Below, piece by piece: positions 14,127-41,671 of a DNA stretch of 64,000 bases (the first letter of the stretch is position 1; every line of letters starts with the position of its first letter). Under the pieces are notes generated by a model. It was not told the origin of the DNA and made no database searches. It saw only the letters and a program-made list of their open reading frames with translations. This stretch comes from an uncultured Flavobacteriaceae bacterium (GTDB taxonomy: Bacteria > Bacteroidota > Bacteroidia > Flavobacteriales > Flavobacteriaceae), in contig CANMSA010000007.1 in NCBI GenBank assembly GCA_947500385.1, forward strand, positions 116,929 to 180,928, written 5' to 3'. The position numbers and the translations under genes were made by a program.

Positions 14127-15227
14127 CTACTTGTTTACAGCAAAAATCTCTTTTAACTGTTTGACCATACCTCCGTTCCCGGAGACGGTGATCTCACCAA
14201 TCTTTTCGGCGATTTTCTCCACATATTCCATCTCTTTCAACTTGAAGAGCATTTCGTTTTCTTCCATTAGTTTAGCGGTGTTCAGCAAACTTCGGGTAGA
14301 AGCGGTCTCTTCACGTCGTGTAATGGTATTGGCCTGTGCCTGTTTTTGTGCCACAAGCACTTGGTTCATGATAGCCTTCATTTCACCCGTTAAGATGACA
14401 TCTCGGATACCACAGTTCAGTACTTGTACGCCCAGGTCGGCCGCTGTTGTCTTGATTTCGGAAAATACCGCATCGGCGATGCGTTCCTTTCGCTCTAACA
14501 GCTCATCCAAGGTATAGGTGCCTATGTAGGCACGCAATACCAATTGAATGGCAACATACAACTGCTTTTCGTAGTCTTTGTTTTCCAACAAGGCCTTTTC
14601 AATAGCAACTATCTTATACCGGGTATAGCAGTTGATTCGAATAGCGGCCTTGTCCTTGGTCAACAATTCTTGCCCTGCGATTTCGAGTTGCAATTGTCGC
14701 ATATCGGCGCGTGCAATCTTTACCGAGGTATCGTTTTTCCAGAAGTGGTATACCCCACTGTCCAGAACCTTCACGAAGGTATCCTCGACCAGTAACAGCG
14801 CTTTTTCGTATGCCAAAATCTCCAATACACGAATGTAAGGGCGTAACAAAGGATGTCCTAGCAGCATTTTGCCAATGGGTTCGGTGATGTAGATTTTACT
14901 CAAATCGGCCATCACGAACTCATAATTGATCAATCCTTTCCAGAAAGCATATTTACCGGCTGCAAGCACTTTTTTCAAAGTCCCGTTTTCAGATACCAAT
15001 GCCAACTCCGCATCTTTTACCTCGATAACGTGTAACATTGCCTCCAAACCTTGGTCCTGTAGCAAAATCTCCAATGCTATCGGGGCCACAAAGGCTTTGG
15101 TGAGGTCGTATACCATCACCATGTTTCGTAGGCCTACCCAGTGTGTGCCTTGGGTAATAACGTTTTGGTAATCTCCATTTTTGAAGACCAAACCTACTTT
15201 TCCTGCATTGATTCGTACTCGTTTCAT
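14127..15227 (-). CDS. Slipin (SPFH/band-7) family protein
   Basis: GQELLTKDK, GIRDVIL and RREETASTRSLLNTAKLME motifs of the RtcB-associated slipin family. Confidence 0.9.
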   Translation of the reverse strand: MKRVRINAGKVGLVFKNGDYQNVITQGTHWVGLRNMVMVYDLTKAFVAPIALEILLQDQGLEAMLHVIEVKDAELALVSENGTLKKVLAAGKYAFWKGLINYEFVMADLSKIYITEPIGKMLLGHPLLRPYIRVLEILAYEKALLLVEDTFVKVLDSGVYHFWKNDTSVKIARADMRQLQLEIAGQELLTKDKAAIRINCYTRYKIVAIEKALLENKDYEKQLYVAIQLVLRAYIGTYTLDELLERKERIADAVFSEIKTTAADLGVQVLNCGIRDVILTGEMKAIMNQVLVAQKQAQANTITRREETASTRSLLNTAKLMEENEMLFKLKEMEYVEKIAEKIGEITVSGNGGMVKQLKEIFAVNK

Positions 15228-15630
15228 TATTCAAAATTTGTGTCCGCCAGTCGATTGACGGACGAACGGGTTAAACTATTTTCATTTATTATTAGTTGGT
15301 TTAATTCTCTTTTAAAAAACCGCAACTACAAATCATCTATTCGATACGGAAATATAGGTTTTCGAAGTTCGTTACGATTTGTTTTTCGGTATGCTTCGGT
15401 CGGTGTTGCCAATACTATGTATTGGTTTTTCCGAGGGAAGGATGTTCAAAAAAGAAATTGCCTTTCACATCAAAAATTCAGTATTTCAAAGTAGTTTCAA
15501 GACTGTTGATTCATCCGAAGAAAAACCAACCGACCTATACCTACGGTTTTTTGCCAATTATACGGAGTGACCGTCCGGTGGTCTTTTTACAAGTGACCTT
15601 CTTGTTCAGAATGGATTTCAAGTCCATATC

Positions 15631-15707
15631 CCACATTATGAGTGTGGTGCTCTACCAACTGAGCTAAGAGATCTAAAAAAAGTGACCTCTGCAGGAGTCG
15701 AACCTGC
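15631..15707 (-). ncRNA. Circularly permuted tRNA(CAT)-like module (T arm > closed acceptor stem > D arm > anticodon arm)
   Basis: Minus strand reads GCAGG-TTCGACT-CCTGC AGAGGTC-A CTTTTTTTA GATCTCT TA GCTC-AGTTGGTA-GAGC A CCACA-CTCATAA-TGTGG. AGAGGTC/GATCTCT form 7 bp, with the 3' half preceding the 5' half. Confidence 0.6.
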
Positions 15708-15710
15708 GCG

Positions 15711-15806
15711 TACTTCTGTTGTTCTAACCAGGCTGAACTACATCCCCATTTTTTGTGAAATGGTTTGTGGGGAAGGAGGGATTCGAACCCCCGACTTACA
15801 GATGTA
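15711..15806 (-). ncRNA. Circularly permuted tRNA-like (YrlA-topology) module lacking an anticodon loop
   Basis: TAC-A-TCTGT AAGTC GGGGG-TTCGAAT-CCCTC CTTCCCC [21-nt loop] GGGGATG TA GTTC-AGCCTGGTTA-GAAC A ACAGA-A-GTA. The acceptor stem has 6/7 pairs and the closing stem is 5+3 bp. Confidence 0.6.
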
Positions 15807-15932
15807 AGACCATTTTTTGGAAAACAGCCGAAACCTTCAAGTCAAGTTGCATATGAAGACCTAATACTTCTCAGTAAAACTTCACACAATAGTGCTATAC
15901 AGAAACACCCAACAAGACCCGCTTGATACTTT

Positions 15933-16082
15933 ATTCCCGCGAAAGCGGGAATCTTTTACGATTTCCCTATGCGAAGCGTAGGCCTCGCCAGGGAATCTTA
16001 TCTTTCAATGAACTTTAATAAACCTCGCAACACACCTTGTTGCTGCGAGGCACCCCCGCAAACCACAGCTTATGTGGTTTGC
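15933..16082. repeat. Cluster of four GC-rich palindromic hairpins (REP-like)
   Basis: attcccgc-gaaa-gcgggaat; ttccct...agggaa; cctcgca...tgcgagg; gcaaaccaca...tgtggtttgc. Confidence 0.55.
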
Positions 16083-16092
16083 ACTATATATT

Positions 16093-16435
16093 AAAAAGCG
16101 TACTGGGAATACCCACGCTTATGGACAAGCTTTCGTAGGAGTACGGCAAAAGCCTTCCCTACTTTTCCACGCGCTTTCCGTTGCTTTGGAAATCGCGTAC
16201 TTGTCCGATGCCAGATACATTGTAACCGTTCGGCGACTTAGACTCGGCCTGCATAGCGGCTTTGGCCGCGCTTTGCAATTACAGGGGTTGGCTCCCCCAC
16301 CGTTCATAGGTGTCCCCTTGCGGGGCGACCTACTAGAATGTTCACCGCATGGTATCGGTTTGCGACCGCTACCACCCCATATCTTGCAATGGGTTTAGGC
16401 AACTACTAGCTGCTACAATGCCCGAAGTCTTTTGC
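16093..16435 (-). ncRNA. Candidate large structured ncRNA B (~340 nt)
   Basis: No credible ORF. Hairpins CCCC-GCAA-GGGG, CGGT-CGCAA-ACCG and GCGGC-CAAA-GCCGC; long-range 7-bp pairs CATTGTA/TACAATG and GGACAAG/CTTGTCC; terminator-like 3' hairpin plus U-run. Confidence 0.6.
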
Positions 16436-16496
16436 TTTTCTGATGCTCCCGAATGAGCTAAGAGACTAATGGGTTGCTCTTGGGAATCGAACCCAA

Positions 16497-16890
16497 ACAA
16501 AAGGTTGGCTTAGAAGAAGGGCTTCGAGAATGGCTCCGTAGATTTTGGCCTACAAAATACCAACCTTCTTCTTGAGTGCCTCCCGGCACACGGTATGTGA
16601 AGCTACCGAACAGTTTCCTATCAGGTACCTCTGGTACTGCACCAAGCTCCGCTGGGTCGGATGCCCCATACGTAACCTAGTACTACAACTTTTCCTCTTG
16701 GTGTCTCCACCGCAAGCCTACACAATGTATCGGCTATAAGTCCCGAGGTTGCCTCAGCGGTCGCCCCCGGCGTATCGTGACTTATGTTGGTTGCTTGCTT
16801 ACCTGCACTACCTTCCGAAGAAGGCAGTCTCCGCCTGCGATGCCCGCATGCAGATTTATCCTTGTTACCAAGTTTATCTGAGGACGATAA
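16497..16890 (-). ncRNA. Candidate large structured ncRNA A (~400 nt)
   Basis: No credible ORF. ACTGCCTTC-TTCG-GAAGGTAGT, GGTG-GAGA-CACC, GTGCC-GGGA-GGCAC, ATAAGTC/GACTTAT and AGAAGAAGG/CCTTCTTCT helices. Confidence 0.6.
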
Positions 16891-16939
16891 GCCGCCCCGT
16901 CATTTACAAGAAATGACGATTTTATTAGAAGAAGCCCAT

Positions 16940-17070
16940 ATGGACTTCTCTATTTCAATGAACGTTCCTCTGAGGCCGACGCGCCATCTGGCCCATTCGC
17001 AAAAAATGTCCACTGGACATTTTCTTAACGCGCTGGCCTACCACAGCTCTTCCCTTTGAGCTAAAGAGGC
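16940..17070 (-). pseudogene. tRNA 5'-half remnant interrupted by a palindromic element
   Basis: GCCTCTT TA GCTC-AAAGGGAA-GAGC followed by the palindrome AAAATGTCCAGTGGACATTTT; no matching 3' acceptor strand. Confidence 0.5.
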
Positions 17071-17172
17071 ATTTTGTTAAAGCCCCACAACACTCCTTTG
17101 TTGTTGTGAGGCACTCCCGCAAACCTCTTTTTGAAAGGCTAGTTTTTAATTACACAACAAAATTGAATCATA

Positions 17173-17195
17173 ACTACGCAATGATTATGCGTAGT
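17173..17195. promoter_or_regulatory. Probable WYL-regulator operator, perfect palindrome ACTACGCA-N7-TGCGTAGT
   Basis: Same arms as at 40597-40619; lies just upstream of a minus-strand CAATTTTG -7-like element. Confidence 0.75.
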
Positions 17196-17219: not shown

Positions 17220-17714
17220 TTATACCGCCATGTCCGCACAGGACGAGCTTGCAAACGCAAACGGTTTTGCCTTAAAAACAAATCCCATTCCAAGGATATA
17301 GCCCATCGCTTCTTTTAGTGCCACATTCGATTCAAATTTGGGATCCGTATTAATATCGGCGTGCACTTCAAGCTCGACATTGTATTTGTCCAAAATGTGG
17401 CAGATTGCATAAGCTGTCTCGACGGACATGGCCACTTCTTTTAACATACGCTCTTTGATACTGATGTTAGTAGTGCCCTTTTGATTTTTGATAAACATAA
17501 AACCACCTTTACCTTCCCTAAGTATGACCACTACAGTAGCATAGGCAATGTAAGACTTGTAGGCTTGTGAATCGGACCCTACACAAATCTTAATTCGATA
17601 TCCTGCCTTTTGCTCCCTGACAATGGCCTGCTCAACCAGAGTTGTGATGGGCTGTTCAAAAACCTTCCCGTTAAAATTTCTCCATTTATTCACTGCTATT
17701 TTCATAATTTTCAA
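17220..17714 (-). CDS. Ribonuclease H-like YkuK (DUF458) family protein
   Basis: CVGSDSQ, LKEV, LEVHADIN and KP.AFA.SSCAD motifs; start probably at 17705 or 17714. Confidence 0.85.
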   Translation of the reverse strand: MKIMKIAVNKWRNFNGKVFEQPITTLVEQAIVREQKAGYRIKICVGSDSQAYKSYIAYATVVVILREGKGGFMFIKNQKGTTNISIKERMLKEVAMSVETAYAICHILDKYNVELEVHADINTDPKFESNVALKEAMGYILGMGFVFKAKPFAFASSSCADMAV

Positions 17715-17728
17715 TCATTTTTTTGTTT

Positions 17729-17827
17729 TGGAACATACTGGGATGGAACCCTTCGACTTTGCCCAGGACAGGCCCGGTACCTTTGGTACTTAAAACCAAC
17801 GTGCACACCTACTACACTGCTGTTCCC
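17729..17827 (-). pseudogene. tRNA-Leu(TAA)-like, degenerate, with REP-like insert in T arm
   Basis: GGGAACA...TTGGT-TTTAAGT-ACCAA...ATGTTCC-A; insert ccttcgactttgcccaggacagg on the + strand. Confidence 0.5.
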
Positions 17828-17832
17828 TTTTG

Positions 17833-17905
17833 GGTGACTTGAGAGATTCGAACTCTGTTCTTCGCTTTCACACAGCGATGTTTTACCACATAAACTAAAG
17901 TCACC
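17833..17905 (-). tRNA. tRNA-His(GTG)
   Basis: 8-bp acceptor GGTGACTT/AAGTCACC (G-1), anticodon arm TCGCT-GTGTGAA-AGCGA, T loop TTCGAAT. Confidence 0.75.
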
Positions 17906-17911
17906 ATGTTG

Positions 17912-17982
17912 TTCATCCGATAGGATTCGAACCTATACGACAAGAATCAAAGTCTTGTGTGCTCCCATTACACAACGGATGA
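17912..17982 (-). tRNA. tRNA-Gln(TTG)
   Basis: TCATCCG/CGGATGA; CAAGA-CTTTGAT-TCTTG; ATAGG-TTCGAAT-CCTAT. Confidence 0.85.
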
Positions 17983-18053
17983 ATTTTGTAGGCCTAAAAG
18001 GATTTATTCATGTCACTTCTATTGTTTTTTAACCGTATTCATGAATGCTCCTC

Positions 18054-18167
18054 ATTTGAACCCATACCACAAGGGTCGAAATGCTTTTCAGCATTCACGA
18101 ACTCCTTAATTTAATTAAACAAGGGCGTGAGCTAAACCTTGTATGCTAACCATTACATCACGGGTCT
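18054..18167 (-). pseudogene. tRNA-Arg(TCG) with 52-nt anticodon-loop insert and missing 3' end
   Basis: AGACCCG TG ATGT-AATGGTTA-GCAT A CAAGG TTT[52 nt]TTTCGAC CCTTG TGGT ATGGG TTCAAAT, after which the sequence diverges. Confidence 0.6.
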
Positions 18168-18184
18168 ATTTGCAAGCTTAACAA

Positions 18185-18256
18185 TCCCGAGACTTCGGGA
18201 GAACTCTTGCCTCAAGGGTAGAAACCTTACGTGCTATCCATTACTCTTTAGACTAC
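18185..18256 (-). pseudogene. Degenerate tRNA-Arg(TCT) with T-loop palindrome
   Basis: AAGG-TTTCTAC-CCTT, then GAG-TTC-[TCCCGAAGTCTCGGGA]; the 3' acceptor is lost. Confidence 0.5.
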
Positions 18257-18259
18257 TTT

Positions 18260-18335
18260 TGGTACTCCACCTTGGATTCGAACCAAGACTAAACAGGGCT
18301 TAAACCCGATGCCTCTTCCGTTGGGCTAGTAGAGC
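18260..18335 (-). tRNA. tRNA-Leu(TAA), short variable loop, CCA encoded
   Basis: GCTCTAC/GTGGAGT-A-CCA; loop TTTAAGC; CTTGG-TTCGAAT-CCAAG. Confidence 0.7.
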
Positions 18336-18451
18336 AGTGATAAAAGGAGAGCGATTCCCTTCGACTGTGCTCAGGATACACTTCTCTTCTGTTTTACTTT
18401 TTACAAAATTTCAAAAGAACTTACCGAATACAGCTATTTCCATTTTTTTAG

Positions 18452-18525
18452 TACAGGGAGAGCGATTCGAACGCTCAAATACCTGATTCTAAATCAGGAG
18501 CCTTTGCCATTTTGGCCATCCCTGC
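18452..18525 (-). tRNA. tRNA-Leu(TAG), short variable loop
   Basis: GCAGGGA/TCCCTGT; CCTGA-TTTAGAA-TCAGG; GAGCG-TTCGAAT-CGCTC. Confidence 0.8.
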
Positions 18526-18531
18526 AAATCG

Positions 18532-18615
18532 TTGAGGCATTAGTCCCGACACTTCGGGAGAACCTAAGACTCCCGTGTTAAAAGGACGGTACTCTACCAA
18601 CTGAGTTATACCTCA
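18532..18615 (-). pseudogene. tRNA-Lys(TTT) with 16-nt palindrome in T loop
   Basis: TGAGGTA/TGCCTCA; loop CTTTTAA; TTAGG-TTC-[TCCCGAAGTGTCGGGA]-CTAA. Confidence 0.7.
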
Positions 18616-18620
18616 CTTTG

Positions 18621-18702
18621 TACTCTGTAAGGCCCCGACGCTTCGGGGGAACCCCTGTTTCCTGATAGAAAGTCAGGCGTACTACCATTATACGAACAGA
18701 GC
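18621..18702 (-). pseudogene. tRNA-Glu(TTC) with 16-nt palindrome in T loop
   Basis: GCTCTGT/ACAGAGT; CCTGA-CTTTCTA-TCAGG; AGGGG-TTC-[CCCCGAAGCGTCGGGG]-CCTT. Confidence 0.7.
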
Positions 18703-18716
18703 AAAAGTCTGAGAAG

Positions 18717-18867
18717 TCCCGCATTAGCGGGACGACCTCCCGCTTCCAAAGCGGGCAAACAACTCCCGACACTTAGGTCGGTATCCTGACTTTCGCGATG
18801 GCGAAACGTCAGGACCCGTACCTTCCCGATAGACAGTCGGGTGCTCTAGGCTTTGAACTACGGTACT
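18717..18867 (-). pseudogene. tRNA-Asp(GTC) 5' part followed by a stack of palindromic inserts
   Basis: GTTC-AAAGCCTA-GAGC, CCCGA-CTGTCTA-TCGGG, ACGGG-T, then a ~50-nt double hairpin and two more palindromes; no 3' acceptor. Confidence 0.6.
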
Positions 18868-18870
18868 TTG

Positions 18871-18954
18871 TGGAAGTAGTAGTCCCGACACTTCGGGAGA
18901 ACCCTTAATTCCACATAGAAAGTGTGGCGTCTTAGCCGTTTGACCAACGTAGCC
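18871..18954 (-). pseudogene. Chimeric tRNA-Glu(TTC) with T-loop palindrome
   Basis: GGCTACG...CCACA-CTTTCTA-TGTGG AAGGG-TTC-[TCCCGAAGTGTCGGGA]-CTAC TACTTCC-A; the 3' strand does not pair with the 5' acceptor. Confidence 0.6.
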
Positions 18955-18959
18955 TTTTG

Positions 18960-19031
18960 CGGTTCATACGAGAATCGAACTCGTATCTCCCGAGAGACAG
19001 TCGGGAAGGATTGCCATTACCCCAATGAACC
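18960..19031 (-). tRNA. tRNA-Asp(GTC)
   Basis: GGTTCAT/ATGAACC-G; CCCGA-CTGTCTC-TCGGG; ACGAG-TTCGATT-CTCGT. Confidence 0.85.
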
Positions 19032-19039
19032 CAATTTTG

Positions 19040-19111
19040 TACACCTACTAGGATTCGAACCCGGACTGAAAGAGTAGAAGTCTTTAGTGCTATCCCTTAC
19101 ACCATAGATGC
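19040..19111 (-). tRNA. tRNA-Arg(TCT)
   Basis: GCATCTA/TAGGTGT; AAAGA-CTTCTAC-TCTTT; T loop TTCGAAT with one T-stem mismatch. Confidence 0.8.
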
Positions 19112-19117
19112 TTCTTG

Positions 19118-19199
19118 TGGGAATGATAGGATTCGAACCTATTAAGCCAAAGCACCAGTTTTACAGACTGGCTCAACCCTCCATCGTTGACGCATTCCC
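19118..19199 (-). tRNA. tRNA-Tyr(GTA)
   Basis: GGGAATG/CATTCCC; CCAGT-CTGTAAA-ACTGG; longer variable region; ATAGG-TTCGAAT-CCTAT. Confidence 0.85.
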
Positions 19200-19206
19200 T
19201 TTTTTG

Positions 19207-19279
19207 AGACAAGGACAGGATTCGAACCTGTAAAAAACAGATTTGCAGTCTGCCACCTTAACCATTCAGCCACCTTGTC
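19207..19279 (-). tRNA. tRNA-Cys(GCA)
   Basis: GACAAGG/CCTTGTC with U73; GCAGA-CTGCAAA-TCTGT; ACAGG-TTCGAAT-CCTGT. Confidence 0.85.
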
Positions 19280-19283
19280 TATT

Positions 19284-19434
19284 TGGCGGAGTTGAGCCCC
19301 AAGGCTTCGAGGGAATACCGACGCTTGGGTCGGTATCCTGACTTTCACGAACGTGAAACGTCAGGACCTCCACCGCCTCTGGTGCGGCCTTGTTTAGCAG
19401 ACAAGTGTAACAAACCAGTATTTACCTACTCTCC
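19284..19434 (-). pseudogene. tRNA-Ser(GCT) with composite hairpin insert in T loop
   Basis: GGAGAGT...CTTGT-CTGCTAA-ACAAG, long variable arm GCCGC/GCGGT, GGAGG-T-[~70-nt insert]-...ACTCC-G-CCA. Confidence 0.65.
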
Positions 19435-19443
19435 ATTTTTTTG

Positions 19444-19517
19444 TCTGAGAGACAGGATTCGAACCTGCAACCTCCTGCATCCAAGGCAGGTAAACCAAAC
19501 CATCGTTATCCTCTCAG
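19444..19517 (-). tRNA. tRNA-Pro(TGG)
   Basis: CTGAGAG/CTCTCAG; CCTGC-CTTGGAT-GCAGG; GCAGG-TTCGAAT-CCTGT. Confidence 0.85.
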
Positions 19518-19522
19518 TGTTG

Positions 19523-19610
19523 CGGAAGGAGTGGGGGTCGAACCCACACGAGGCGTTAACTCCTAACTGTTTTCAAAACAGCGACCACCACCAAATTGGT
19601 TTGCCCTTCC
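19523..19610 (-). tRNA. tRNA-Ser(TGA)
   Basis: GGAAGGG/TCCTTCC-G; GCTGT-TTTGAAA-ACAGT; long variable arm; GTGGG-TTCGACC-CCCAC. Confidence 0.85.
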
Positions 19611-19616
19611 ATCTTG

Positions 19617-19691
19617 TTGACCCGATGGGAATCGAACCCATGACCTCGACCTTAAAAGGGCCTTGCTCTAACCTGGCTGAGCTACGAATCA
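19617..19691 (-). tRNA. tRNA-Lys(TTT)
   Basis: TGATTCG/CGGGTCA; GCTC-AGCCAGGTTA-GAGC; loop CTTTTAA; ATGGG-TTCGATT-CCCAT. Confidence 0.85.
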
Positions 19692-19740: not shown

Positions 19741-19774
19741 AAAAAAAGCGCCTCCTGTTCTGGGAGACGCTTTT
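19741..19774 (-). terminator. Attenuator terminator 1 (upstream of tRNA array)
   Basis: GCGTCTCC-CAGAACA-GGAGGCGC followed by T7. Confidence 0.75.
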
Positions 19775-19796
19775 GTATTGCTAGGCTTTATTTGAG

Positions 19797-19979
19797 TTAA
19801 ACCCATATATACTTCTCCCGTTTATTATTGTACAGTCTTTCTCCATAAAAATATAAACTCGATTTCGGTGAGTTTATCGGTGTGAGTGTATGTACCATTT
19901 CTTTTCTCATTTTTTCAAATTCGTAAGAACCCCAACAACGTTGATTTTTTTTCCTATGTGTATGTCGTTGTGTTTTCAT
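19797..19979 (-). CDS. Putative 60-aa leader peptide (MKTQRHTHRKK...KREKYIWV)
   Basis: Starts about 20 nt after a CATCTTTG element (20000-20007), ends just before terminator 1, and contains GGGAGA complementary to the terminator 5' arm. Confidence 0.5.
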   Translation of the reverse strand: MKTQRHTHRKKNQRCWGSYEFEKMRKEMVHTLTPINSPKSSLYFYGERLYNNKREKYIWV

Positions 19980-20220
19980 TTGTCTTTTTTTCGACAGGGC
20001 AAAGATGAAAACGATTTTTAAATTATACAAGAAAAAAATTAATTTAATTTATTGATAATCAAATAGTTAAATTAAAATATAGACAATAGAATCCCTGTCC
20101 GTCATAGTGCGGATTTTGAACATTTATTACAACTGTCTGTCTACCAATTGTTTTCTGTTTCAACTATGTTATTTTATTTGTTTGCTACTTTTCACATTTT
20201 ACTTTAAAAAATTCCACAAA

Positions 20221-20250
20221 AAAAAGCGCCCAATTGTAATTGGACGCTTT
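20221..20250 (-). terminator. Attenuator terminator 2
   Basis: AAAGCGTCCAAT-TACA-ATTGGGCGCTTT followed by a U-run. Confidence 0.75.
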
Positions 20251-20283
20251 CATTTTATCGCTTAATCGAGTTATTTCATAGAA

Positions 20284-20394
20284 TCAATTCTTGGATAAAG
20301 TCACATAGCGTCCGTTTCGCTCACTATATTCTGAGCGAAAATCGCAGAGCCAAAGCTCTTGTATTTGGATGATATGTAACTTTCTCGGTTTCAT
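20284..20394 (-). CDS. Putative 36-aa leader peptide (MKPRKLHIIQIQELWLCDFRSEYSERNGRYVTLSKN)
   Basis: Directly after a CATCTTTG element; contains GGACGCT (20307-20313) complementary to the terminator-2 5' arm. Not in the ORF track. Confidence 0.5.
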   Translation of the reverse strand: MKPRKLHIIQIQELWLCDFRSEYSERNGRYVTLSKN

Positions 20395-20471: not shown

Positions 20472-20975
20472 TTAGGGGATATCCGATTCTAACTTCCTTT
20501 TGATTCTACTTTCCTCCGCCTCAATAAAGAATATCTCGTCGTTGACATAGGTATTCTTTTTTGCTTCGCTCAAGTGTTTCAGTGACAGCTTGTAATTTTC
20601 AGTTGTTTCCAAAGCAAACGCCGAAACACAATATAAACTTGCTTTATCAATACCCTTAATGGTAAAACCAAAATTGATCAGTTTAAAGGCTCTCTCGATT
20701 TCATCTGCCCAAATTAAGTAGGTAGCATACATAGGATATACCTCTAAATAGTCGGTGCTGATAGCGATTACCCTATCAAAACAGTCAAAAGCTTTGGCAT
20801 ATTGATTCAAGTTTTTTGCGTATACCTCTCCAAGCATACATAGTACCGCACAGTAATTTTCGTTGTAAGAAAGGGCGTAATTTAGCGATTCACACACGTC
20901 AATCCAATCAACGCAAGGGCCATTCATCGCTTCTTTGGCCTTTAAGTAATAGGTGTCTGCTATCGTTAGTTCCAT
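20472..20975 (-). CDS. TPR-like protein (paralog 2)
   Basis: LTIADTYYLKAK...LNYALSY; helical TPR-like pattern; close paralog of 21556-22086. Confidence 0.8.
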   Translation of the reverse strand: MELTIADTYYLKAKEAMNGPCVDWIDVCESLNYALSYNENYCAVLCMLGEVYAKNLNQYAKAFDCFDRVIAISTDYLEVYPMYATYLIWADEIERAFKLINFGFTIKGIDKASLYCVSAFALETTENYKLSLKHLSEAKKNTYVNDEIFFIEAEESRIKRKLESDIP

Positions 20976-21210: not shown

Positions 21211-21447
21211 TTAATCAAAAGAGGCTTGCAACTTTTTAAGTCTATTCAACTCGCCAATGTTAGGGGGCAATTTGGTAAGCTTGTTTCCTCTCAGGTCTAG
21301 ATTCTTTAATGATTGAATTTCTTTGATTTTTGGCATCAACTGAATAAGATCTTCATTTGTAAGTTCCAAACTTGTAAGAGCCAACGTATTGCTCCATTGC
21401 TCTTTTGCTGTCCTTATCAATCGTTCTGCCTCGGTAATGTTTCCCAT
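21211..21447 (-). pseudogene. Truncated leucine-rich-repeat protein fragment
   Basis: LKNLDLRGNKLTKLPPNIGELNRLKKL, stopping after about two repeats (78 aa). Confidence 0.65.
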
Positions 21448-24251: not shown

Positions 24252-24357
24252 GATACAATGAGATATTAGATGTTAGACCGAAGACCTAAGAGGTCTCCGG
24301 AGATACTATTTTTCTTGAATGTTGTTTCGAAAAGAGCTGCTCTAAAAACTGAGGCAT

Positions 24358-24389
24358 AAAAAAGTCCGAAAGCGTACGGCTTCGGACTT
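24358..24389 (-). terminator. Attenuator terminator 3 (upstream of rtcB)
   Basis: AAGTCCGAAG-CCGTACGC-TTTCGGACTT followed by a U-run. Confidence 0.75.
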
Positions 24390-24411
24390 GCTATCATAAT
24401 CTAGTACAGAT

Positions 24412-24495
24412 TTATGTATTTGAGAAGTCCTGAAGCGACACGAAAGAGGCACCTGGTACCTTTTGTGCAATCTGATGTCTGTTTATGAAAGTCAT
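24412..24495 (-). CDS. Putative 27-aa rtcB leader peptide (MTFINRHQIAQKVPGASFVSLQDFSNT)
   Basis: Downstream of a TAGATTTG promoter element (~24534-24541); contains CTTC-A-GGACTT complementary to the terminator-3 5' arm. Confidence 0.55.
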   Translation of the reverse strand: MTFINRHQIAQKVPGASFVSLQDFSNT

Positions 24496-24768: not shown

Positions 24769-24795
24769 TAGTCTTGTATCGTTTTCTAATAGTTT

Positions 24796-30611: not shown

Positions 30612-30633
30612 CAGTAAATTTGTGAGGGAAATT

Positions 30634-32118: not shown

Positions 32119-32158
32119 AATGGTTTTCCTAGTAAGATCAAAAATTAAAGCGAAATAG

Positions 32159-35188: not shown

Positions 35189-35204
35189 AGAAGAATAAAA
35201 CCGT

Positions 35205-35954
35205 ATGCTTACAGCGATTATCATAGAAGACATGTACGACGCCTTGGCGCTTTTAAGGAAGGATATCGAAACAAGACATCCTGAAATTGAGATTATTGCT
35301 ACGGCCCAAAGTGTGGTGGAAGCGGCCAAAGTACTACGAAAACAACAACCGGATATCCTTTTTCTGGATATCATGCTCGGGGATGGTACCGGTTTTGATA
35401 TTTTGGAGATTTTTCCAGAATTGAAATCAAAGATTATTTTTGTGACCGCCAGCGATGAGTTTGCGATTCGGGCGTTTAAATTTGCGGCGATCGACTATGT
35501 GTTGAAACCCTATACCCATAACGATTTGAGCATGGCCATTGCACGTGCAAAAGAACAATTACGTCCTGGTGAAGAGCGTTTGCGGATCTTGAAGGATACC
35601 ATAGCCGCCCCGGAACAAAAACCCGATAAGATTTCGCTACATACCTTGGACCAAATTATTATCGTAAGCCTAGACGATATTGTGCGTTGTGAATCGGATA
35701 GCAACAATACTATTTTTCACCTTCAAGACAAGCGGAAGATATTCGTGACTAAAACGTTAAAGTATTTCTCCGATATGCTGACAGGGTATGATTTTCTACG
35801 AATACACCAAAGCCACTTGGTCAACTTACAATGCATCAGCGCTTATATGAAGACGGACGGTGGTTACCTCCTGCTCAAAAACGGGGAAAATGTACCCGTA
35901 TCGGTACGTAAGAAGGCCGAGATCATTGAGATTTTAGATCGGATGCATCGGTAG
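35205..35954 (+). CDS. LytTR-family response regulator
   Basis: REC (FLDIML; AIDYVLKP) plus LytTR (FLRIHQSHLVN; PVSVRK). Confidence 0.93.
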   Translation: MLTAIIIEDMYDALALLRKDIETRHPEIEIIATAQSVVEAAKVLRKQQPDILFLDIMLGDGTGFDILEIFPELKSKIIFVTASDEFAIRAFKFAAIDYVLKPYTHNDLSMAIARAKEQLRPGEERLRILKDTIAAPEQKPDKISLHTLDQIIIVSLDDIVRCESDSNNTIFHLQDKRKIFVTKTLKYFSDMLTGYDFLRIHQSHLVNLQCISAYMKTDGGYLLLKNGENVPVSVRKKAEIIEILDRMHR

Positions 35955-36074: not shown

Positions 36075-37187
36075 ATGAAAACAACTTCAACGAGCATCCT
36101 ATTACTGTATTTGTCCTTAGTAATAATGGGCTGTAAAAAAGGGTCTTCTGTTATGGGGAATCATGCAATCGTTCCCGAGGAGATTGTGCAACTCGATGAC
36201 ATCAGGATCCATGATCCTAAAACTGTTGAAAATCTTAGTCTTTTTGTACTTACAGGCAAGGAAAGAGTGCTGGGAAAAAGATACCACACCTTGGCAGAAG
36301 CGATGGATGCCAAGGCCGTGACGGTTAGGGAAACCGGTGCTGTTAACGAACTCTCGATCGATAATAATGGTACGGACTACATATTCATCCATTCTGGGGA
36401 TATTGTGAAGGGAGGAAAACAAGATCGAACCATTAGTCATGATATTATAGTCGCGCCCAATACCAAAGACATGCCGTTGGCAAGCTTTTGTGTAGAGCAG
36501 GGTAGGTGGCAACAACGCGCCGAGGAAGAGGTAGTCGCCTTTAGTTCGAATACCAAAATGCTCTCGTCAAGAGACCTAAAATTGGCTGCCAAACATGAAA
36601 GCGATCAAGGAAAAGTATGGAGCAAGGTTTCGGAACAAAAGGCTTACTTGAATGAAAAACTATCGAAAAGAAAAGGCTATGCCGTAGACGTTGCAGCAGC
36701 GCAGTCTGCCAGCAGCCTGCAATTGGCTTTGGAGAACGAAGAACTTGAAAAGAGCAAGGATTCTATTTACGAACTCGTAAAGGATTTGATCGACACCCCG
36801 GATGCGATCGGTTACGCCTATGCCATTAACGGGGAAATTTATGGAGTAGACGTATACAACAATCGGCAGCTTTTTGCCGATTTATGGGATAGAATAGTGG
36901 AATCGCTGATCGTAGAGGCCATTAGTAAAGAGGGGGAAGAAAAAAGCGCGGATAAAACAAAAAAGGAAGTACTTGCCTATATGAAGTCTGTAAAGGAAAC
37001 GGATAAAAAGACAACAAAAAAACTTAATACGATTACCAATTTTAAAACCATTGAAAACGAAAAGGGCAGCATTGTATTCTCCACCGAAGATTTGGAAGAA
37101 AAAAAATGGATTCACAAAAGCTATATGCAAATAGATACCGCTGCAGTTGCCCAAAATGAAAGCCCTTTGTTGAACGCACGCCATTAA
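36075..37187 (+). CDS. Lipoprotein with ARPP-1 (DUF6569)-like domain
   Basis: Lipobox IMGC; V.ETG.VNEL.I.N...GDIVKGGKQDRTI...FCVEQGRW...Q..VW motifs. Confidence 0.75.
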   Translation: MKTTSTSILLLYLSLVIMGCKKGSSVMGNHAIVPEEIVQLDDIRIHDPKTVENLSLFVLTGKERVLGKRYHTLAEAMDAKAVTVRETGAVNELSIDNNGTDYIFIHSGDIVKGGKQDRTISHDIIVAPNTKDMPLASFCVEQGRWQQRAEEEVVAFSSNTKMLSSRDLKLAAKHESDQGKVWSKVSEQKAYLNEKLSKRKGYAVDVAAAQSASSLQLALENEELEKSKDSIYELVKDLIDTPDAIGYAYAINGEIYGVDVYNNRQLFADLWDRIVESLIVEAISKEGEEKSADKTKKEVLAYMKSVKETDKKTTKKLNTITNFKTIENEKGSIVFSTEDLEEKKWIHKSYMQIDTAAVAQNESPLLNARH

Positions 37188-37227: not shown

Positions 37228-38706
<1,479 letters not shown>

Positions 38707-38763: not shown

Positions 38764-39828
38764 TTATTGCTGTTTTTCGTTATAGAATTCTTGCCTAACA
38801 CTCGCCAAGAGACTATTTGCAAGCGTTAAGTTAGGGCGATCCTTCAAGTGAGACTTTCGGAATATAATTTCTAACTCGGCTCTTAGTAATTCAGCTTTTT
38901 CAACCAATTCTTCATATTCCAATTCCGCATTTTTTACGGCCAGTAAAAAATCCCTATCCGATCTACGAACTATTATCTTGCTTTGTTCTCCTATTTCCTT
39001 TGCCATATGCAACAAGCGAAACGTATGCATCATGTTTTTGGCATCGTAGTTCTTACTGTGCGAAACATTACTTTTATAGCGTTCATTATTTCTTTTTTCA
39101 ACCCAAGACCAATATTCCTTATACTTTTTGCAATACGATGAGTATCCATCTACGTTGAAATACAGCAGTGCAATGGGTACCTCTGATTTGGGTATGGAAC
39201 TGAGACATACCTCATTTGCATGCGCCCTAGCGATTCCGTTGTACCCCATGGTAGTATCGTAGAAAAGATTGTAGCAATCTTTCATATGACTGATTTTTGC
39301 CAATCCGCAATGGTTGATTTCTAAACCCTCTTGATGTAAAAATGTTTTTAACGGCATGGCGCGTTTTTCTGTTCTTACAAAACAAAAATCGACTACAGAC
39401 CTTCGCTCTTTTTCAACAGGGTTCACGATTTTCTTTTTGAGCCCTCTCGCCTTTTTAATTTGCGTAAAAGCGTAGTTCGCAAAGGTGTCCTTACACAATT
39501 TCGAAAGAAAGTATTCGGATTTCAATTTGTCAAAGAGAGGATGTTTCTGCAGAACACAATCCTCAGGAATGCTTAATAGTTCAAGGATATTGGGATTGTT
39601 CTTTGCTAGTAACTCCACGAACTTTTTAAGCTCATAGTATACGATGTCGTTGGTCTCATTGTTTATTTGACCTACATATTCCAATGAATAATACTTTTCC
39701 TTTGGCAGTACAAAAACTCCACGAATATCGGTATCAGAGGAAGCGGTAGCAAGGCCATATGCTCTGCTACCGCTAATACATTCAAATAGGATGTTTCCCG
39801 AAGCCTTTAGCTCTTTGATTGTTTTCAT
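38764..39828 (-). CDS. Pol-beta-superfamily nucleotidyltransferase
   Basis: GSRAYGLA...SDTDIRGVF, NNPN.LELL and YDAKNMMH..RLL motifs. Confidence 0.88.
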   Translation of the reverse strand: MKTIKELKASGNILFECISGSRAYGLATASSDTDIRGVFVLPKEKYYSLEYVGQINNETNDIVYYELKKFVELLAKNNPNILELLSIPEDCVLQKHPLFDKLKSEYFLSKLCKDTFANYAFTQIKKARGLKKKIVNPVEKERRSVVDFCFVRTEKRAMPLKTFLHQEGLEINHCGLAKISHMKDCYNLFYDTTMGYNGIARAHANEVCLSSIPKSEVPIALLYFNVDGYSSYCKKYKEYWSWVEKRNNERYKSNVSHSKNYDAKNMMHTFRLLHMAKEIGEQSKIIVRRSDRDFLLAVKNAELEYEELVEKAELLRAELEIIFRKSHLKDRPNLTLANSLLASVRQEFYNEKQQ

Positions 39829-40565
39829 TTTGTTATCGTATTGTATAAAAAGCTATTCATTCGTTCACTATCGGGCCTTCCTCCTAAAAGGGATTTGGCG
39901 TACTTTTCATTCACCTCTAGAACAGAGTTTATTAGTTCTATTACCATCTCATTTCTAGCGTGAAGATAGCATTCATTTTTTTTTGATTTAACAGCCATCA
40001 AGTTTCTTATTTCGTCTGCCTCATCCCTTTTTACAAGAGATAACATCTTGCTAAGAACGACAGGTGGCATCGTATTGTGTTCAAGTATCCACTTGCCTGC
40101 TAAAGCGGTTCGCAGTGCGTAAAAGAGACTCTTTAGCTTTACCATATCATCGGTCAGTGTCGCTCTATGTTTTTTGCCCATACTTAAGTAATGATACATA
40201 GCGGCCACAGGAGAAAAACACTCTTTGGCGATTGCTCTAAGCTCTTCTATGGAGTGGCTTTCTCCCATGTATGTGATAGGCGAGAACAAATGTTCTATTG
40301 CTGATACGTTCGACTTTTTGAGTAGGCGCAATTTTTTTCGAAGTTCCCAACCGACCGCGTCAAAATCACCATCCATAAAGTTTATTGTATCCTTTTTTTC
40401 CGAGATCGATAGATACCACTCCAGAGGCGGAGTATATAGAAACCGTACATCGTAATCACTGTCCGGCGATGCGAACCCCCAAGCCCTACTACCAGATTCG
40501 CAAGCGAACAATATATCAACATTTTTATCGGTAGCAAGTGCCTTTAGCTTTGTGTGTATCATCAT
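39825..40565 (-). CDS. Pol-beta-superfamily nucleotidyltransferase (YcgL-like)
   Basis: ESGSRAWGFASPDSDYDVRF, GWELRK and K..FYALR motifs. Confidence 0.9.
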   Translation of the reverse strand: MMIHTKLKALATDKNVDILFACESGSRAWGFASPDSDYDVRFLYTPPLEWYLSISEKKDTINFMDGDFDAVGWELRKKLRLLKKSNVSAIEHLFSPITYMGESHSIEELRAIAKECFSPVAAMYHYLSMGKKHRATLTDDMVKLKSLFYALRTALAGKWILEHNTMPPVVLSKMLSLVKRDEADEIRNLMAVKSKKNECYLHARNEMVIELINSVLEVNEKYAKSLLGGRPDSERMNSFLYNTITK

Positions 40566-40596
40566 TTCTAAATTTATAATACAAACTTGAAAACGA

Positions 40597-40619
40597 ACTA
40601 CGCACTTATTTTGCGTAGT
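40597..40619. promoter_or_regulatory. Probable WYL operator ACTACGCA-N7-TGCGTAGT
   Basis: Perfect palindrome in the 92-bp gap between the divergent WYL gene and the NTase-NTase-rtcB operon. Confidence 0.8.
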
Positions 40620-40657
40620 AAAATACTATTTTTATTTTCACCGTAAATACTTTTAAA

Positions 40658-41671
40658 ATGGCCCTCAATAAAAACGCCCTAATTCGTTACAAGACCATCG
40701 ATAAATGTCTGCAAAACAACTACCGCCAATGGACCTTGGACGATCTGATCCAGGCCTGTTCCGATGCCCTTTATGAGTATGAGGGAAGGGATGTAAACGT
40801 AAGCAAACGCACCATACAGTTAGATATTCAACTCATGCGGAGCGATAAATTGGGGTACAATGCCCCGATAGAGGTCTATTCCAAAAAGTACTATCGTTAT
40901 GCCGATGAGGGTTTTTCCATCACCAACATTCCCATAACGGAAAACGATATGGACGTACTGTCGGAAACGGTGGAGATGTTGAAACAGTTCAAGGATTTTT
41001 CACTGTTTTCGGAACTAGGCGGAATTATTCAACGGTTGGAAGATACCGTGTATACCGAGAAGACCCACCAAGCATCGATTATCCATTTAGATAAAAATGA
41101 AAACCTCAAAGGCCTGCACTGGTTAGATGAATTGTATCGAGCCATCCAGAAAAAGGTAGTATTGGACATTACCTATCAATCTTTTAAGGCTTCCAAACCC
41201 AACGTAATCAAATTTCATCCTTGTTTGCTAAAAGAGTTTAACAATCGTTGGTTTTTGATAGGAATGGGCAGAAAAGGCAGGGGCGTGGTAAACCTAGCGC
41301 TGGACCGTATCATATCCGTTGATTATGATTTTAAAACCGATTATAAAGATTTTGAGTTTAATGCCGACACTTTTTACAAAGACGTAGTGGGAGTTACCGT
41401 AAACCAAGGGGAGCGACCCTCAGATATAAAACTTTGGATAGATAGGCATAATGCACCCTATGTACTTACAAAACCATTACATCATTCGCAGTATGTTGAA
41501 AAAGAGCATGAAGACGGGAGCGTTGAGGTAATGATAAAAGTAAAAATCAATTTTGAATTGGAACGTTTGCTACTTGGTTTTGGAGAAGCCTTGGAGGTAT
41601 TGAAACCAGAGCGGTTGCGGAAGAGGGTTTCAACGAAATTGGCCAAAGCGGTCGCTATGTATCAAGACTAA
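40658..41671 (+). CDS. WYL-domain transcriptional regulator (HTH-WYL-WCX)
   Basis: RY..IDKCL, RTIQLDIQ.MR..LGYNAPI HTH; LKEFNNRWFLIG...ALDRI WYL core; C-terminal WCX. Confidence 0.92.
   Translation: MALNKNALIRYKTIDKCLQNNYRQWTLDDLIQACSDALYEYEGRDVNVSKRTIQLDIQLMRSDKLGYNAPIEVYSKKYYRYADEGFSITNIPITENDMDVLSETVEMLKQFKDFSLFSELGGIIQRLEDTVYTEKTHQASIIHLDKNENLKGLHWLDELYRAIQKKVVLDITYQSFKASKPNVIKFHPCLLKEFNNRWFLIGMGRKGRGVVNLALDRIISVDYDFKTDYKDFEFNADTFYKDVVGVTVNQGERPSDIKLWIDRHNAPYVLTKPLHHSQYVEKEHEDGSVEVMIKVKINFELERLLLGFGEALEVLKPERLRKRVSTKLAKAVAMYQD

Follow-up and report, generated by a model that had tools for sequence, protein, structure and literature searches.

A conserved, modular RtcB-PrfH neighbourhood of Flavobacteriaceae with a tRNA array, a GOLLD-like RNA and predicted leader attenuators

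GOLLD RNA was discovered in 2009. It is found in phages, prophages and horizontally acquired tRNA arrays and forms a 14-mer nanocage, and a 2025 cryogenic electron microscopy paper still calls its function unknown (PMC12286853). A long tRNA array is also part of a stress regulon of Anabaena PCC 7120: as shown experimentally, an array of 26 tRNA genes, rtcB (77-fold) and a slipin gene (42-fold) are co-repressed by TrcR, and the regulon is induced by translation inhibitors (PMC8421152, PMC10272220). RtcB is an RNA ligase that acts together with PrfH in the rescue and repair of ribosomes cut by colicin E3 (PMC9304027, PMC12829566), and the PrfH-CT proteins of Flavobacteriia also rescue non-stop ribosomes (PMC12829566). 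RlaP nucleotidyltransferases add one or two nucleoside monophosphates to the 3'-OH ends of RNA and have been proposed to restore nucleotides removed by "smart" ribotoxins prior to ligation (PMC12776372). The association of RtcB with Band-7 proteins, tRNA-like RNAs and RlaP goes back to Burroughs and Aravind (2016), as quoted in a preprint (bioRxiv 10.1101/312249). Here, we describe a locus that brings these parts together in a stretch of 64,000 nucleotides (nt), hereafter "the window", from an uncultured Flavobacteriaceae bacterium (GenBank assembly GCA_947500385.1, contig CANMSA010000007.1, positions 116,929 to 180,928 of the forward strand).

The locus, at positions 14127-41671 of the window, is a conserved but modular neighbourhood with patchy occupancy. 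We consider it fairly likely that this is a modular locus that responds when the translation machinery is damaged and that it is made up of four transcription units in two predicted regulons.

Gene content and conservation of the locus

Genes in the window were identified by Pfam and NCBIfam profile searches and RNAs by ARAGORN and Rfam (also at a relaxed threshold). [quoted passage not shown] The parts are as follows.

40658-41671, plus strand: HTH-WYL-WCX regulator (Pfam WYL, E = 2.6e-10; WCX, 3.8e-14; HTH_11 weak, E = 0.14)
39825-40565, minus strand: RlaP nucleotidyltransferase 1, Pol-beta type (PF10127, 3.8e-69)
38764-39828, minus strand: RlaP nucleotidyltransferase 2, Pol-beta type (PF10127, 1.2e-28, residues 10-127), with a C-terminal extension
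37228-38664, minus strand: RtcB2, a divergent RtcB RNA ligase (PF01139, 2.4e-36)
36075-37187, plus strand: ARPP-1 domain protein (PF20208, 4e-63)
22860-24251, minus strand: RtcB1 RNA ligase (PF01139, 5e-83, full length)
22077-22769, minus strand: PrfH with a basic C-terminal tail (TIGR03072 equivalog, 239 bits, cut-off 166.65)
21556-22086 and 20472-20975, minus strand: two paralogous proteins with weak TPR matches (about 1e-3)
21211-21447, minus strand: LRR fragment between the TPR copies (LRR_14, 1.8e-7)
17727-19691, minus strand: tRNA array (ARAGORN, Rfam and homology to related arrays)
17220-17705, minus strand: RNase H-like YkuK/DUF458 protein, at the array's 3' end (PF04308, 3.6e-33)
16098-17150, minus strand: GOLLD-like large structured RNA (RF02032), conserved core at 16098-16965
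15590-16097, minus strand: hairpin region (15840-16097) and tandem permuted tRNA-like RNA (15590-15840), YrlA-like or band-7-associated tRNA
14127-15227, minus strand: Band-7/SPFH slipin-like protein (PF01145, 1.8e-24)

One genome per species was scanned with RtcB1, which yielded 80 Flavobacteriaceae loci (referred to by L numbers where needed) in about 20 genera, among them Maribacter, Zobellia, Cellulophaga, Aquimarina, Kordia, Winogradskyella, Bizionia, Lacinutrix, Tamlana, Flavivirga, Flagellimonas, Tenacibaculum, Polaribacter, Lutibacter and Flavobacterium; together with the window these are 81 loci. The loci were compared by tblastn, ARAGORN and nhmmer, and modules were counted downstream in the 69 loci with a full downstream flank and upstream in 65 loci. 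RtcB1 is 74 to 89% identical across the 80 species, with Maribacter and Zobellia as the closest relatives of the window (89%). Downstream of prfH and the TPR gene, a tRNA array (at least five tRNAs, same strand and site) was present in 25 of the 69 loci, a Band-7 gene in 31, YkuK in 10 and GOLLD in 4; among all 80 loci, Band-7 lies on the same strand 3' of rtcB1-prfH in 32. On the other side, RtcB2 is encoded 2 to 6 kb upstream of rtcB1 on the same strand in 32/65 loci, a divergent WYL gene stands beside it in 32/65, RlaP was found in 13/65, and ARPP-1 lies beside RtcB2 in six relatives. Among cultured carriers, Winogradskyella luteola WHY3 has the complete set with GOLLD, Flavivirga amylovorans KACC 14157 has array, YkuK and Band-7, and Zobellia uliginosa or a Maribacter strain has array and Band-7. 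The gene order and strand of the modules are repeated in dozens of species-level genomes, and this clustering of RNA-repair, tRNA and ncRNA modules is far beyond chance. The synteny counts across the 80 loci thus make the proposed super-locus real as a conserved modular neighbourhood. The refutation named in the earlier note, that its components are unlinked in relatives, fails because the modules are syntenic across many Flavobacteriaceae genera.

A gap of 90 nt separates the end of rtcB1 from prfH, which is on the same strand, and prfH directly follows rtcB1 in all 80 relatives. The next gene 3' of prfH is the TPR gene in 73 of the 80 loci, with a single copy as the norm in relatives, and the terminator scan placed the end of the rtcB1-prfH-TPR transcription unit at 20251-20222. 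PrfH has 230 amino acids (aa) and the basic tail KPQKTLKKYRPKRQQLKNQLRKQQWD, and thus has the length (225 to 250 aa) and the tail that go with the definition of the PrfH-CT subfamily, in which the C terminus is a conserved basic helix (PMC12829566). Judged by these features, the PrfH of the window belongs to the PrfH-CT subfamily typical of Flavobacteriia. In the PDB, it best matches 9mor_A (annotated as peptide chain release factor H, 231 aa; E = 3.9e-85 over residues 2-225), which we take to be the PrfH of Capnocytophaga gingivalis, and a second match to a PrfH structure was found at 2e-41. By analogy with Escherichia coli and C. gingivalis, the pair would release peptides on damaged ribosomes and ligate 16S rRNA. 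The TPR gene is duplicated in the window and in L068.

RtcB2 matches RtcB structures in the PDB at 1e-12, has the HGAGR histidine motif and is likely to start at the ATG at 38631; its orthologues in relatives are 72 to 83% identical. It is encoded in an operon with the RlaP genes, from which the WYL gene is divergent. In some genomes, an RtcB2-type ligase is encoded directly 3' of a YkuK, Band-7 or TPR gene (L086, 7569; L137, 8470-9653; L061, 13073), and therefore the two RtcB modules can take other orders. In L061, the palindrome described below lies 118 nt upstream of this ligase.

ARAGORN found 11 intact tRNA genes at 17832-19691 on the minus strand (Lys, Ser, Pro, Cys, Tyr, Arg, Asp, Leu, Leu, Gln and His); the rest of the 64 kb has none, and Rfam agreed. 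The gaps of the array hold 8 or 9 additional units that are degenerate through truncation, insertions or broken acceptor stems: Ser-GCU, into which 60 nt are inserted, two Glu, second copies of Asp, Lys and Arg-UCU, a fragment of Pro, a Gln/Arg hybrid and Phe, which also has an insertion. They can be recognised only by homology, since part of each is 85 to 98% identical to an intact tRNA from a related array. The 19 tRNA genes counted previously are therefore units rather than intact genes; 11 of them stand, and the others are degenerate. Adjacent intact tRNAs are separated by spacers of 4 to 8 nt and the whole array fits into 2 kb, so that the tight spacing, the many anticodons and the patchy distribution are those of an L-array (long tRNA array). 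Arrays of 5 to 19 tRNAs occupy the equivalent site in 26 relatives in a similar order (Lys-Ser-Pro-Ser-Asn-Cys-Tyr-...-Leu-Leu-Arg-Gln-His-Phe), and the array of the window looks like a fusion of two array lineages.

In several array tRNAs (minus strand of the window, 18198-18896 and 19329), a 16-nt hairpin, YCCCGAAGYGTCGGGR, stands after GGTTC in place of the T-loop, and its stem shows compensatory changes (TCCCGA/TCGGGA versus CCCCGA/TCGGGG). The hairpin was found six times in the window, six times in the Maribacter relative L007 (13779-14636) and nowhere else in the 80 loci; some of the units that bear it have intact acceptor stems and others have broken ones. Gene conversion, a tiny mobile hairpin and a functional variant are all possible origins. 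An archaeal-type intron spliced via RtcB was also considered, and no evidence was found for it: several of the units have broken acceptor stems, and the hairpin is confined to two genomes.

YkuK proteins that are at least 65% identical to that of the window are almost always encoded 30 to 450 nt 3' of a same-strand array of 4 to 19 tRNAs. This holds across the Bacteroidota, including Chryseobacterium, Chitinophagales and many metagenome contigs (L082, 7975-10486; L084, 9036-10486; L086-L107; L137), and a Band-7 gene often follows further 3'. A YkuK clade of lower identity has no tRNAs nearby. This distribution suggests that the array-linked clade is an RNase H-fold protein dedicated to the array. 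Two further gene arrangements were seen at this site. In Chryseobacterium paridis (L082, 10511-12781 and 15447-15934), the array and YkuK are followed by a cREC_REC gene ("cyclic-phosphate processing receiver"), a DinB_2 gene and two RNase T genes; a Band-7 gene comes next, and before it lie a tRNA-like match and a near-threshold match to Flavo-1 RNA (37.9 bits, gathering score 42). In the Bizionia-like locus L031, an ORF (open reading frame) at 17568-18562, between array/YkuK and GOLLD, contains EKVHGAN, which by eye resembles motif I of Rnl2-type RNA ligases and would make its product an additional RNA-repair enzyme in this slot.

The GOLLD model of Rfam matches 16098-16572 on the minus strand with 124.2 bits (E = 9e-34 to 5e-33; model positions 1-416), below the gathering score of 150 and with one hairpin absent, and none of the GOLLD matches in relatives reaches the gathering score. 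Present are the P1 stem, AAAGCAAAAG, the pseudoknot strands, the CGCAA loop, GUGGAAA..GGGAA and GUAUUC.CA, and a conserved core of about 870 nt lies within about 1050 nt. In an alignment of six flavobacterial homologues over about 900 nt, compensatory changes were seen at 71 of the 259 predicted pairs. A tRNA-like fragment, GGGTTCGATTCCC, and a D-arm-like TAGCTCATTCGGGAGC lie in the linker, and the tRNA array ends 577 nt upstream of GOLLD. A hairpin motif, GTTTGCGGGRGTGCCTCRCARCAACA...GTGTTGYGRGG, flanks GOLLD on the minus strand at 17080-17135 and again at 16025-16075, and relatives that have no GOLLD carry one copy of it; the pattern resembles an insertion of GOLLD into the ncRNA region in which the flank was duplicated.

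Downstream of GOLLD, weak matches to tRNA, YrlA and tmRNA-like models at 15603-15838 on the minus strand (27 to 36 bits for the YrlA model, gathering score 69) mark the tRNA mimic. Folding of the RNA from 19 loci gave two tandem modules, each with a T-arm, a closed acceptor-like helix and a D-arm; the second module adds an anticodon-like arm with CAU, and 28 of the 41 consensus pairs show compensatory changes. The RNA accompanies 28 of the 31 Band-7 genes. The translation of the Band-7 gene, as read, has no obvious N-terminal membrane segment. In two metatranscriptomes of close relatives, in which contig coverage was thin, GOLLD, the tRNA-like RNA and the band-7 leader were covered and the neighbouring mRNAs were not, which is weak evidence that these RNAs accumulate.

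Candidate regulatory elements

The earlier note had expected two control layers, WYL and attenuation, and both are visible in the sequence, as predicted leader-ORF attenuators in front of rtcB1 and the array and as a palindrome at the WYL and GOLLD/Band-7 promoters. The elements are as follows.

24518-24836, minus strand: operator/promoter block copy 1, upstream of rtcB1 (motifs at 24574-24634)
24412-24495, minus strand: leader ORF 1, a conserved ORF of 27 codons, MTFINRHQIAQKVPGASFVSLQDFSNT, downstream of block copy 1
24357-24505, minus strand: four-segment attenuator 1 (alignment A1, 38 leaders)
19982-20317, minus strand: operator/promoter block copy 2, upstream of the tRNA array and homologous to copy 1 (motifs at 20041-20101)
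19797-19979, minus strand: leader ORF 2, 60 codons (about 40 codons in relatives; xYLQHI..RSPK..)
19774-19744, minus strand: leader 2 terminator, just before the first tRNA (terminator scan)
40597-40619, no strand: palindrome ACTACGCA-N7-TGCGTAGT, copy 1, in the 92-bp WYL/RlaP1 intergenic region; candidate WYL operator
17173-17195, no strand: palindrome ACTACGCA-N7-TGCGTAGT, copy 2, 25 nt after ykuK and just before GOLLD; candidate promoter/operator

The operator/promoter block of about 300 nt contains a terminator, a hairpin-containing box and the palindrome AWTTGATWATCARTWAATTAAATT. Its signature motifs, a hairpin region CGGACCGG..ATTCTCAT and a palindrome AATTGATAATCAATTAATTAAATT, occur at only two sites in the 64-kb window, those given above. 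With nhmmer, the block was found upstream of rtcB1 in 51/80 loci, and a second copy accompanies 24 of the 25 tRNA arrays of relatives.

Once per locus, 5' of rtcB1, at least 53 of the 81 loci have an ORF of 26 to 28 codons that ends in xGxxxxxL(R/Q)DF and the N-terminal half of which is AT-rich and highly diverged. It is embedded in four segments. Segment 1, CCGAAGT (T/CGAAGT), lies 4 to 5 nt before the leader ATG, and segment 2, GCTTCRGGACTTC (GCTTCGGGACTTC), is made up of the L-R/Q-D-F codons, with the stop codon 9 to 15 nt after it. Segments 3 and 4 form an intrinsic terminator at 24389-24362, in agreement with the terminator scan. In the 38 leaders, the terminator state (1:2 plus 3:4) is 92% paired and the antiterminator (2:3) 93%, and controls with slid partners reached at most 54%. 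Compensatory changes were found in all three helices (CG/UA 29:6, GC/AU 28:5 and CG/UA 27:3), and the variable third base of the Arg codon coincides with a bulge.

The second leader unit, including its terminator, spans 19741-19979 on the minus strand. In 15 of the 18 array-bearing relatives that were examined, about 30 nt separate the end of the conserved ORF from the terminator, and the 3' end of the ORF overlies a purine-rich strand (GGAAGG, GGAGA or GGGAGA) complementary to the 5' arm and loop of the terminator. The two strands change together, with GGGAGA/TCTCCC in the window and GGAAGG/CCTTCC or GGAGA/TCTCC in relatives. The evidence for this pairing, which comes from inspection of the alignment by eye, is weaker than that for leader 1; when perfect complements that could act as antiterminator were sought automatically 5' of the array terminator, mostly none were found. 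The two leaders are unrelated in sequence and alike in having an ORF over the antiterminator. A short conserved ORF that overlies predicted mutually exclusive helices, which is the layout of an attenuator, thus precedes both rtcB1 and the array.

The palindrome of the second motif set is found twice in the window, with 0 copies expected, and, if one mismatch per arm is allowed, 51 times in the 80 loci, compared with 0.4 times in shuffled sequences. Nearly all of the 51 copies fall into two position classes. Copies of the first class lie about 37 nt from the start of the WYL gene (39 nt upstream of it for copy 1 of the window) and 55 to 125 nt upstream of RlaP1 or RtcB2; those of the second class lie about 730 to 1100 nt upstream of band-7, directly after the TPR or YkuK gene and at the start of the ncRNA unit. 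At both positions, the palindrome is followed by a TAnnTTTG-like box, the Bacteroidota -7 promoter element. A palindrome-type site is also present 60 to 120 nt upstream of GOLLD in the window and in all five GOLLD-bearing relatives of the 80-locus set.

A proposed damage response, competing explanations and flanking genes

The model that we favour, a modular response to damage of the translation machinery, builds on what was observed, namely which genes are present, their synteny, the motifs that units share, the covariation of the RNAs and the conservation of the leader ORFs; what induces the system, in which direction regulation acts, which site is the WYL operator and what each component does biochemically are inferred. 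The first regulon would comprise two units, leader ORF 1 with its attenuator and rtcB1-prfH-TPR, and leader ORF 2 with its attenuator, the tRNA array and ykuK. Both would start behind the homologous operator/promoter blocks, and in both the 3' end of the leader overlaps the predicted antiterminator strand. A ribosome that reads the leader to its stop codon would mask the antiterminator (segment 2), and the terminator would form; a ribosome stalled in the leader would let the antiterminator form, and transcription would read through. For the tRNA array, this architecture suggests silence in normal growth and induction by translational stress. Stalling could result from a cleaved decoding centre of the 16S rRNA, from cleaved or depleted tRNAs or from elongation inhibitors. 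By homology, PrfH-CT would then release peptides from damaged or non-stop ribosomes and RtcB1 would religate the cleaved 16S rRNA, and the array may supply spare tRNAs or decoys, in analogy with Anabaena. The second regulon would also consist of two units, WYL with rlaP-rlaP-rtcB2, and GOLLD with the tRNA mimic and band-7. Their promoters share the palindrome over the -33 region, and the WYL protein would repress both until a damage signal is sensed. RlaP and RtcB2 would heal and seal broken tRNAs, the Band-7 protein with the tRNA-like RNA could be a scaffold or cofactor, and GOLLD would be an optional member of the ncRNA/Band-7 unit.

Several observations weigh against this response model. 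The single integrated system suggested previously is borne out by the synteny and not by the occupancy, which is modular and patchy: rtcB1-prfH-TPR stands alone, with neither array nor Band-7, in 31 of the 69 loci, and GOLLD was found in 6 of the 81 genome loci (including the window and L027) plus one metagenome locus, L088. Because of this patchiness, most parts are dispensable accessories that may come and go by horizontal transfer. In Chryseobacterium and Chitinophagales, the array/YkuK(/Band-7) module occurs without RtcB-PrfH nearby, and the degeneration of nearly half of the array in the window suggests relaxed selection on tRNA function. RtcB1 scored 145 bits against the NCBIfam model TIGR03073 ("release_rtcB"), for which the cut-off is 272. 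As to regulation, the shared block is a putative operator to which no factor is assigned, and binding of the WYL protein to the palindrome is suggested by position, the sole basis for this pairing. The covariation in attenuator 1 comes from few positions because its segments are nearly invariant, and constraints on the RNA alone could suffice to explain the conserved peptide motif of leader 1.

The main rival to the stress-response locus is that array, YkuK and GOLLD form a horizontally transferred cassette of phage or other mobile origin that sits between prfH-TPR and band-7 and is functionally separate from RNA repair; it would have landed repeatedly, or once with later losses, and GOLLD would be there only as the companion of the tRNA array. 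GOLLD and long tRNA arrays are known to travel together in phages and horizontally acquired arrays, which agrees with the patchy distribution of array, YkuK and GOLLD, with the occurrence of the array/YkuK unit away from RtcB-PrfH, with the partly pseudogenised array that resembles a fusion of two lineages and with the hairpin motif that is duplicated on both sides of GOLLD as if by insertion. However, the array is always at one site and on one strand, 24 of 25 arrays carry the duplicate of the rtcB1 operator/promoter block together with a conserved predicted leader attenuator of their own, and GOLLD always lies behind the palindrome that it has in common with the WYL-RlaP/RtcB2 promoter. Moreover, no phage or integrase genes were found by Pfam scans among the about 55 larger ORFs of the window and no homing endonuclease genes near the locus, and blastn with the GOLLD region gave no match in 50,697 phage records. 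A YkuK relative (36% identity) was seen in a single viral contig, which lacks both tRNAs and GOLLD. A prophage context of the window was rejected on these grounds; the remaining larger ORFs are ordinary chromosomal genes, and the locus is on the ordinary chromosome of a Maribacter/Zobellia-like flavobacterium. In Anabaena, moreover, an array is under common control with rtcB and slipin even though it was acquired horizontally. The array/YkuK/GOLLD cassette may have had an ancient mobile origin, but we regard a cassette without a function in RNA repair as unlikely.

A second alternative concerns the leaders, which might be riboswitch-like RNA elements that bind a protein or ligand, with incidental ORFs, and not attenuators that sense ribosomes. 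It would account for the almost invariant segments and for the exact coincidence of the conserved peptide residues with the paired segments, the inner hairpin being the xPGx codons and segment 2 the LRDF codons. It would not account for the length, start and stop spacing of the ORF, which are kept in at least 53 loci despite the diverged N-terminal half, nor for the synonymous variation at the third position of the Arg codon. The second, unrelated leader with its equivalent layout also argues for ribosome sensing, and no Rfam family matches the conserved leader regions. We therefore think that binding elements of this kind are improbable. An island of independent RNA-metabolism and defence genes that have neither regulation nor a pathway in common, and that cluster because selection or recombination hotspots are shared, is very unlikely: the composition does differ between genomes, the window locus contains an unrelated 11-kb block and the KptA operon is near the locus in few genomes only, but order and orientation are kept across about 20 genera, each of the two motif sets is common to two transcription units and absent from the rest of the 64 kb, and the regulon of Anabaena links equivalent gene classes despite their dispersal on the genome.

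A more far-reaching proposal, which we put forward tentatively and hold to be doubtful, extends the damage-response model to GOLLD itself. GOLLD would be a regulated effector of a bacterial response to RNA damage or ribosome stress, and not an RNA of phages only, transcribed from a WYL-controlled promoter together with a Y-RNA-like mimic and Band-7 and acting on tRNAs, ribosomal subunits or ribotoxins during repair by RtcB, PrfH and RlaP, and the locus would also define a ribosome-stalling leader switch for repair genes and spare tRNAs. If the predicted wiring of the locus holds, GOLLD would gain a physiological context with a candidate regulator and candidate partners (Band-7, tRNA mimic, RtcB and tRNA array). 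Since GOLLD is present here in named Flavobacteriaceae isolates, at least one of them a named type-like strain, genetics and pull-downs are feasible. The switching on of RtcB-PrfH in Flavobacteriia would likewise be explained, with the ribosome itself as the sensor via the leader peptide. The link of array, RtcB and slipin seen in Anabaena would extend to a second phylum, with its parts physically linked, which would argue for a general association and not a cyanobacterial peculiarity.

Three further features lie within or near the locus.

25489-35954, plus strand: block of VIT-VWA, SH3, beta-lactamase-fold and histidine kinase/LytTR response regulator genes (Pfam), outside the system
24918-25208, minus strand: small S24-peptidase-like ORF of 96 aa with a GNSMLP motif (Peptidase_S24 weak, E = 0.024)
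669-2852, plus strand: operon of NADAR, LOG/SLOG, KptA/Tpt1 and metallophosphatase genes (Pfam), 11.3 kb from the Band-7 gene

The block of about 11 kb at 25489-35954 is common only to the two closest relatives, L006 and L068, and in the other relatives the RtcB2 and RtcB1 modules abut; the contiguous layout is therefore ancestral. Thus, of the single 27-kb locus proposed previously, the syntenic modules remain, and these 11 kb are an unrelated insertion. VIT-VWA was considered as a vault- or Ro-like partner in RNA repair and rejected, since its N terminus, read from the translation, is signal-peptide-like and hydrophobic and the block is limited to the two closest relatives. The KptA/NADAR/LOG operon, which had been counted as part of the system, is indeed present about 11 kb upstream. 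It carries neither of the shared motif sets (operator block and palindrome), and only 5 of the 80 relatives have KptA or NADAR at a distance of up to 10 kb from the locus; because of this, it is only loosely associated, and a role as an integral component is unsupported. Just 5' of the operon, a nucleoside 2-deoxyribosyltransferase-like gene (34-492, plus strand; PF15891, 5e-36) adds to its flavour of nucleotide and ADP-ribose processing.

The S24-like ORF is found upstream of rtcB1 in many relatives and genera, with copies that are 76 to 95% identical and thus better conserved than RtcB itself. It has no helix-turn-helix domain and has its own terminator at 24769-24744. Elsewhere in the window, the gene of ribosomal protein L21 (49613-50350, plus strand) encodes a C-terminal helix-hairpin-helix extension of about 130 aa (HHH_5, 5.6e-9).

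Comparison with known systems

The earlier note knew of no description of this combination. Most of its parts have been described before, namely RtcB-PrfH, b7a-tRNA/RlaP and, in Anabaena, array-rtcB-slipin. Judged from the sequences and the literature searched, the presence of GOLLD inside such a locus behind a WYL-associated candidate operator appears to be new, as do the conserved leader-ORF attenuators before rtcB1-prfH and the tRNA array and the YkuK clade that is tightly tied to tRNA arrays.

With the RtcB-PrfH systems, that is, RtcB2-PrfH of E. coli ATCC 25922 and PrfH-CT of C. gingivalis, the pair of the window has in common the adjacent rtcB and prfH genes on the same strand and the basic PrfH tail. 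It differs in the conserved TPR gene after it and the predicted leader-ORF attenuator before it, and in being joined to a tRNA array, GOLLD, a tRNA mimic, Band-7 and a second RtcB module. A word search of the PrfH-CT paper (PMC12829566) found no TPR neighbour, leader or regulation described.

The TrcR regulon of Anabaena is alike in its long tRNA array (trn L-array), RtcB and slipin/Band-7 (alr0740). Its genes are dispersed over a megaplasmid and the chromosome, whereas those of the window are clustered, and its control is by a ribbon-helix-helix (RHH) repressor on direct repeats at the -10 box, in contrast to the predicted attenuation and WYL-associated palindrome of the window. The Anabaena papers that were searched do not mention GOLLD, YkuK/DUF458 or WYL, and PrfH, RlaP and leader attenuators do not appear in the passages drawn on here.

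Like the systems of Band-7 with b7a-tRNA and of Ro with YrlA, as quoted in the preprint (bioRxiv 10.1101/312249), the window has RtcB near Band-7 and a tRNA-like ncRNA, with RlaP in the neighbourhood. A Band-7 protein and a tRNA-like ncRNA near RtcB are what defines the Band-7/b7a-tRNA systems in the definition quoted there, and the tRNA mimic, in which T-arm, closed acceptor-like helix and D-arm follow each other as in YrlA, according to the same source matches the band-7-associated tRNA of Burroughs and Aravind. It differs in that the RNA of the window is a tandem of two permuted modules and that GOLLD and the array lie between the ligase and Band-7. In contrast to rsr-yrlBA-rtcBA of Salmonella, no Ro/TROVE, RtcA or RtcR/sigma-54 activator gene was found among the about 55 larger ORFs scanned in the window, and membership of a Ro/YrlA-type rtcBA system was rejected for this reason.

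Compared with GOLLD of phages and Mycobacterium, the copy of the window is alike in its length of about 900 to 1050 nt, the motifs of the 3' domain, the adjoining tRNA array and the tRNA-like fragment in the linker. It is below the gathering threshold and lacks one hairpin of the model. Unlike those copies, it is chromosomal, with no phage genes nearby, and lies within an RtcB-PrfH/Band-7 locus, behind a palindrome shared with an RNA-ligase operon that is predicted to be WYL regulated. The literature searched contained no paper naming both GOLLD and RtcB.

The predicted leaders, finally, resemble attenuation of the trp type in their four segments, the mutually exclusive 1:2, 2:3 and 3:4 pairings, the ORF over segment 2 and the terminator before the genes. 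They differ in that the leader has no runs of one regulatory codon, so that the signal would be general stalling of ribosomes and not shortage of a single amino acid, and in the genes that would be controlled, which are an RNA ligase with a rescue factor and a tRNA array.

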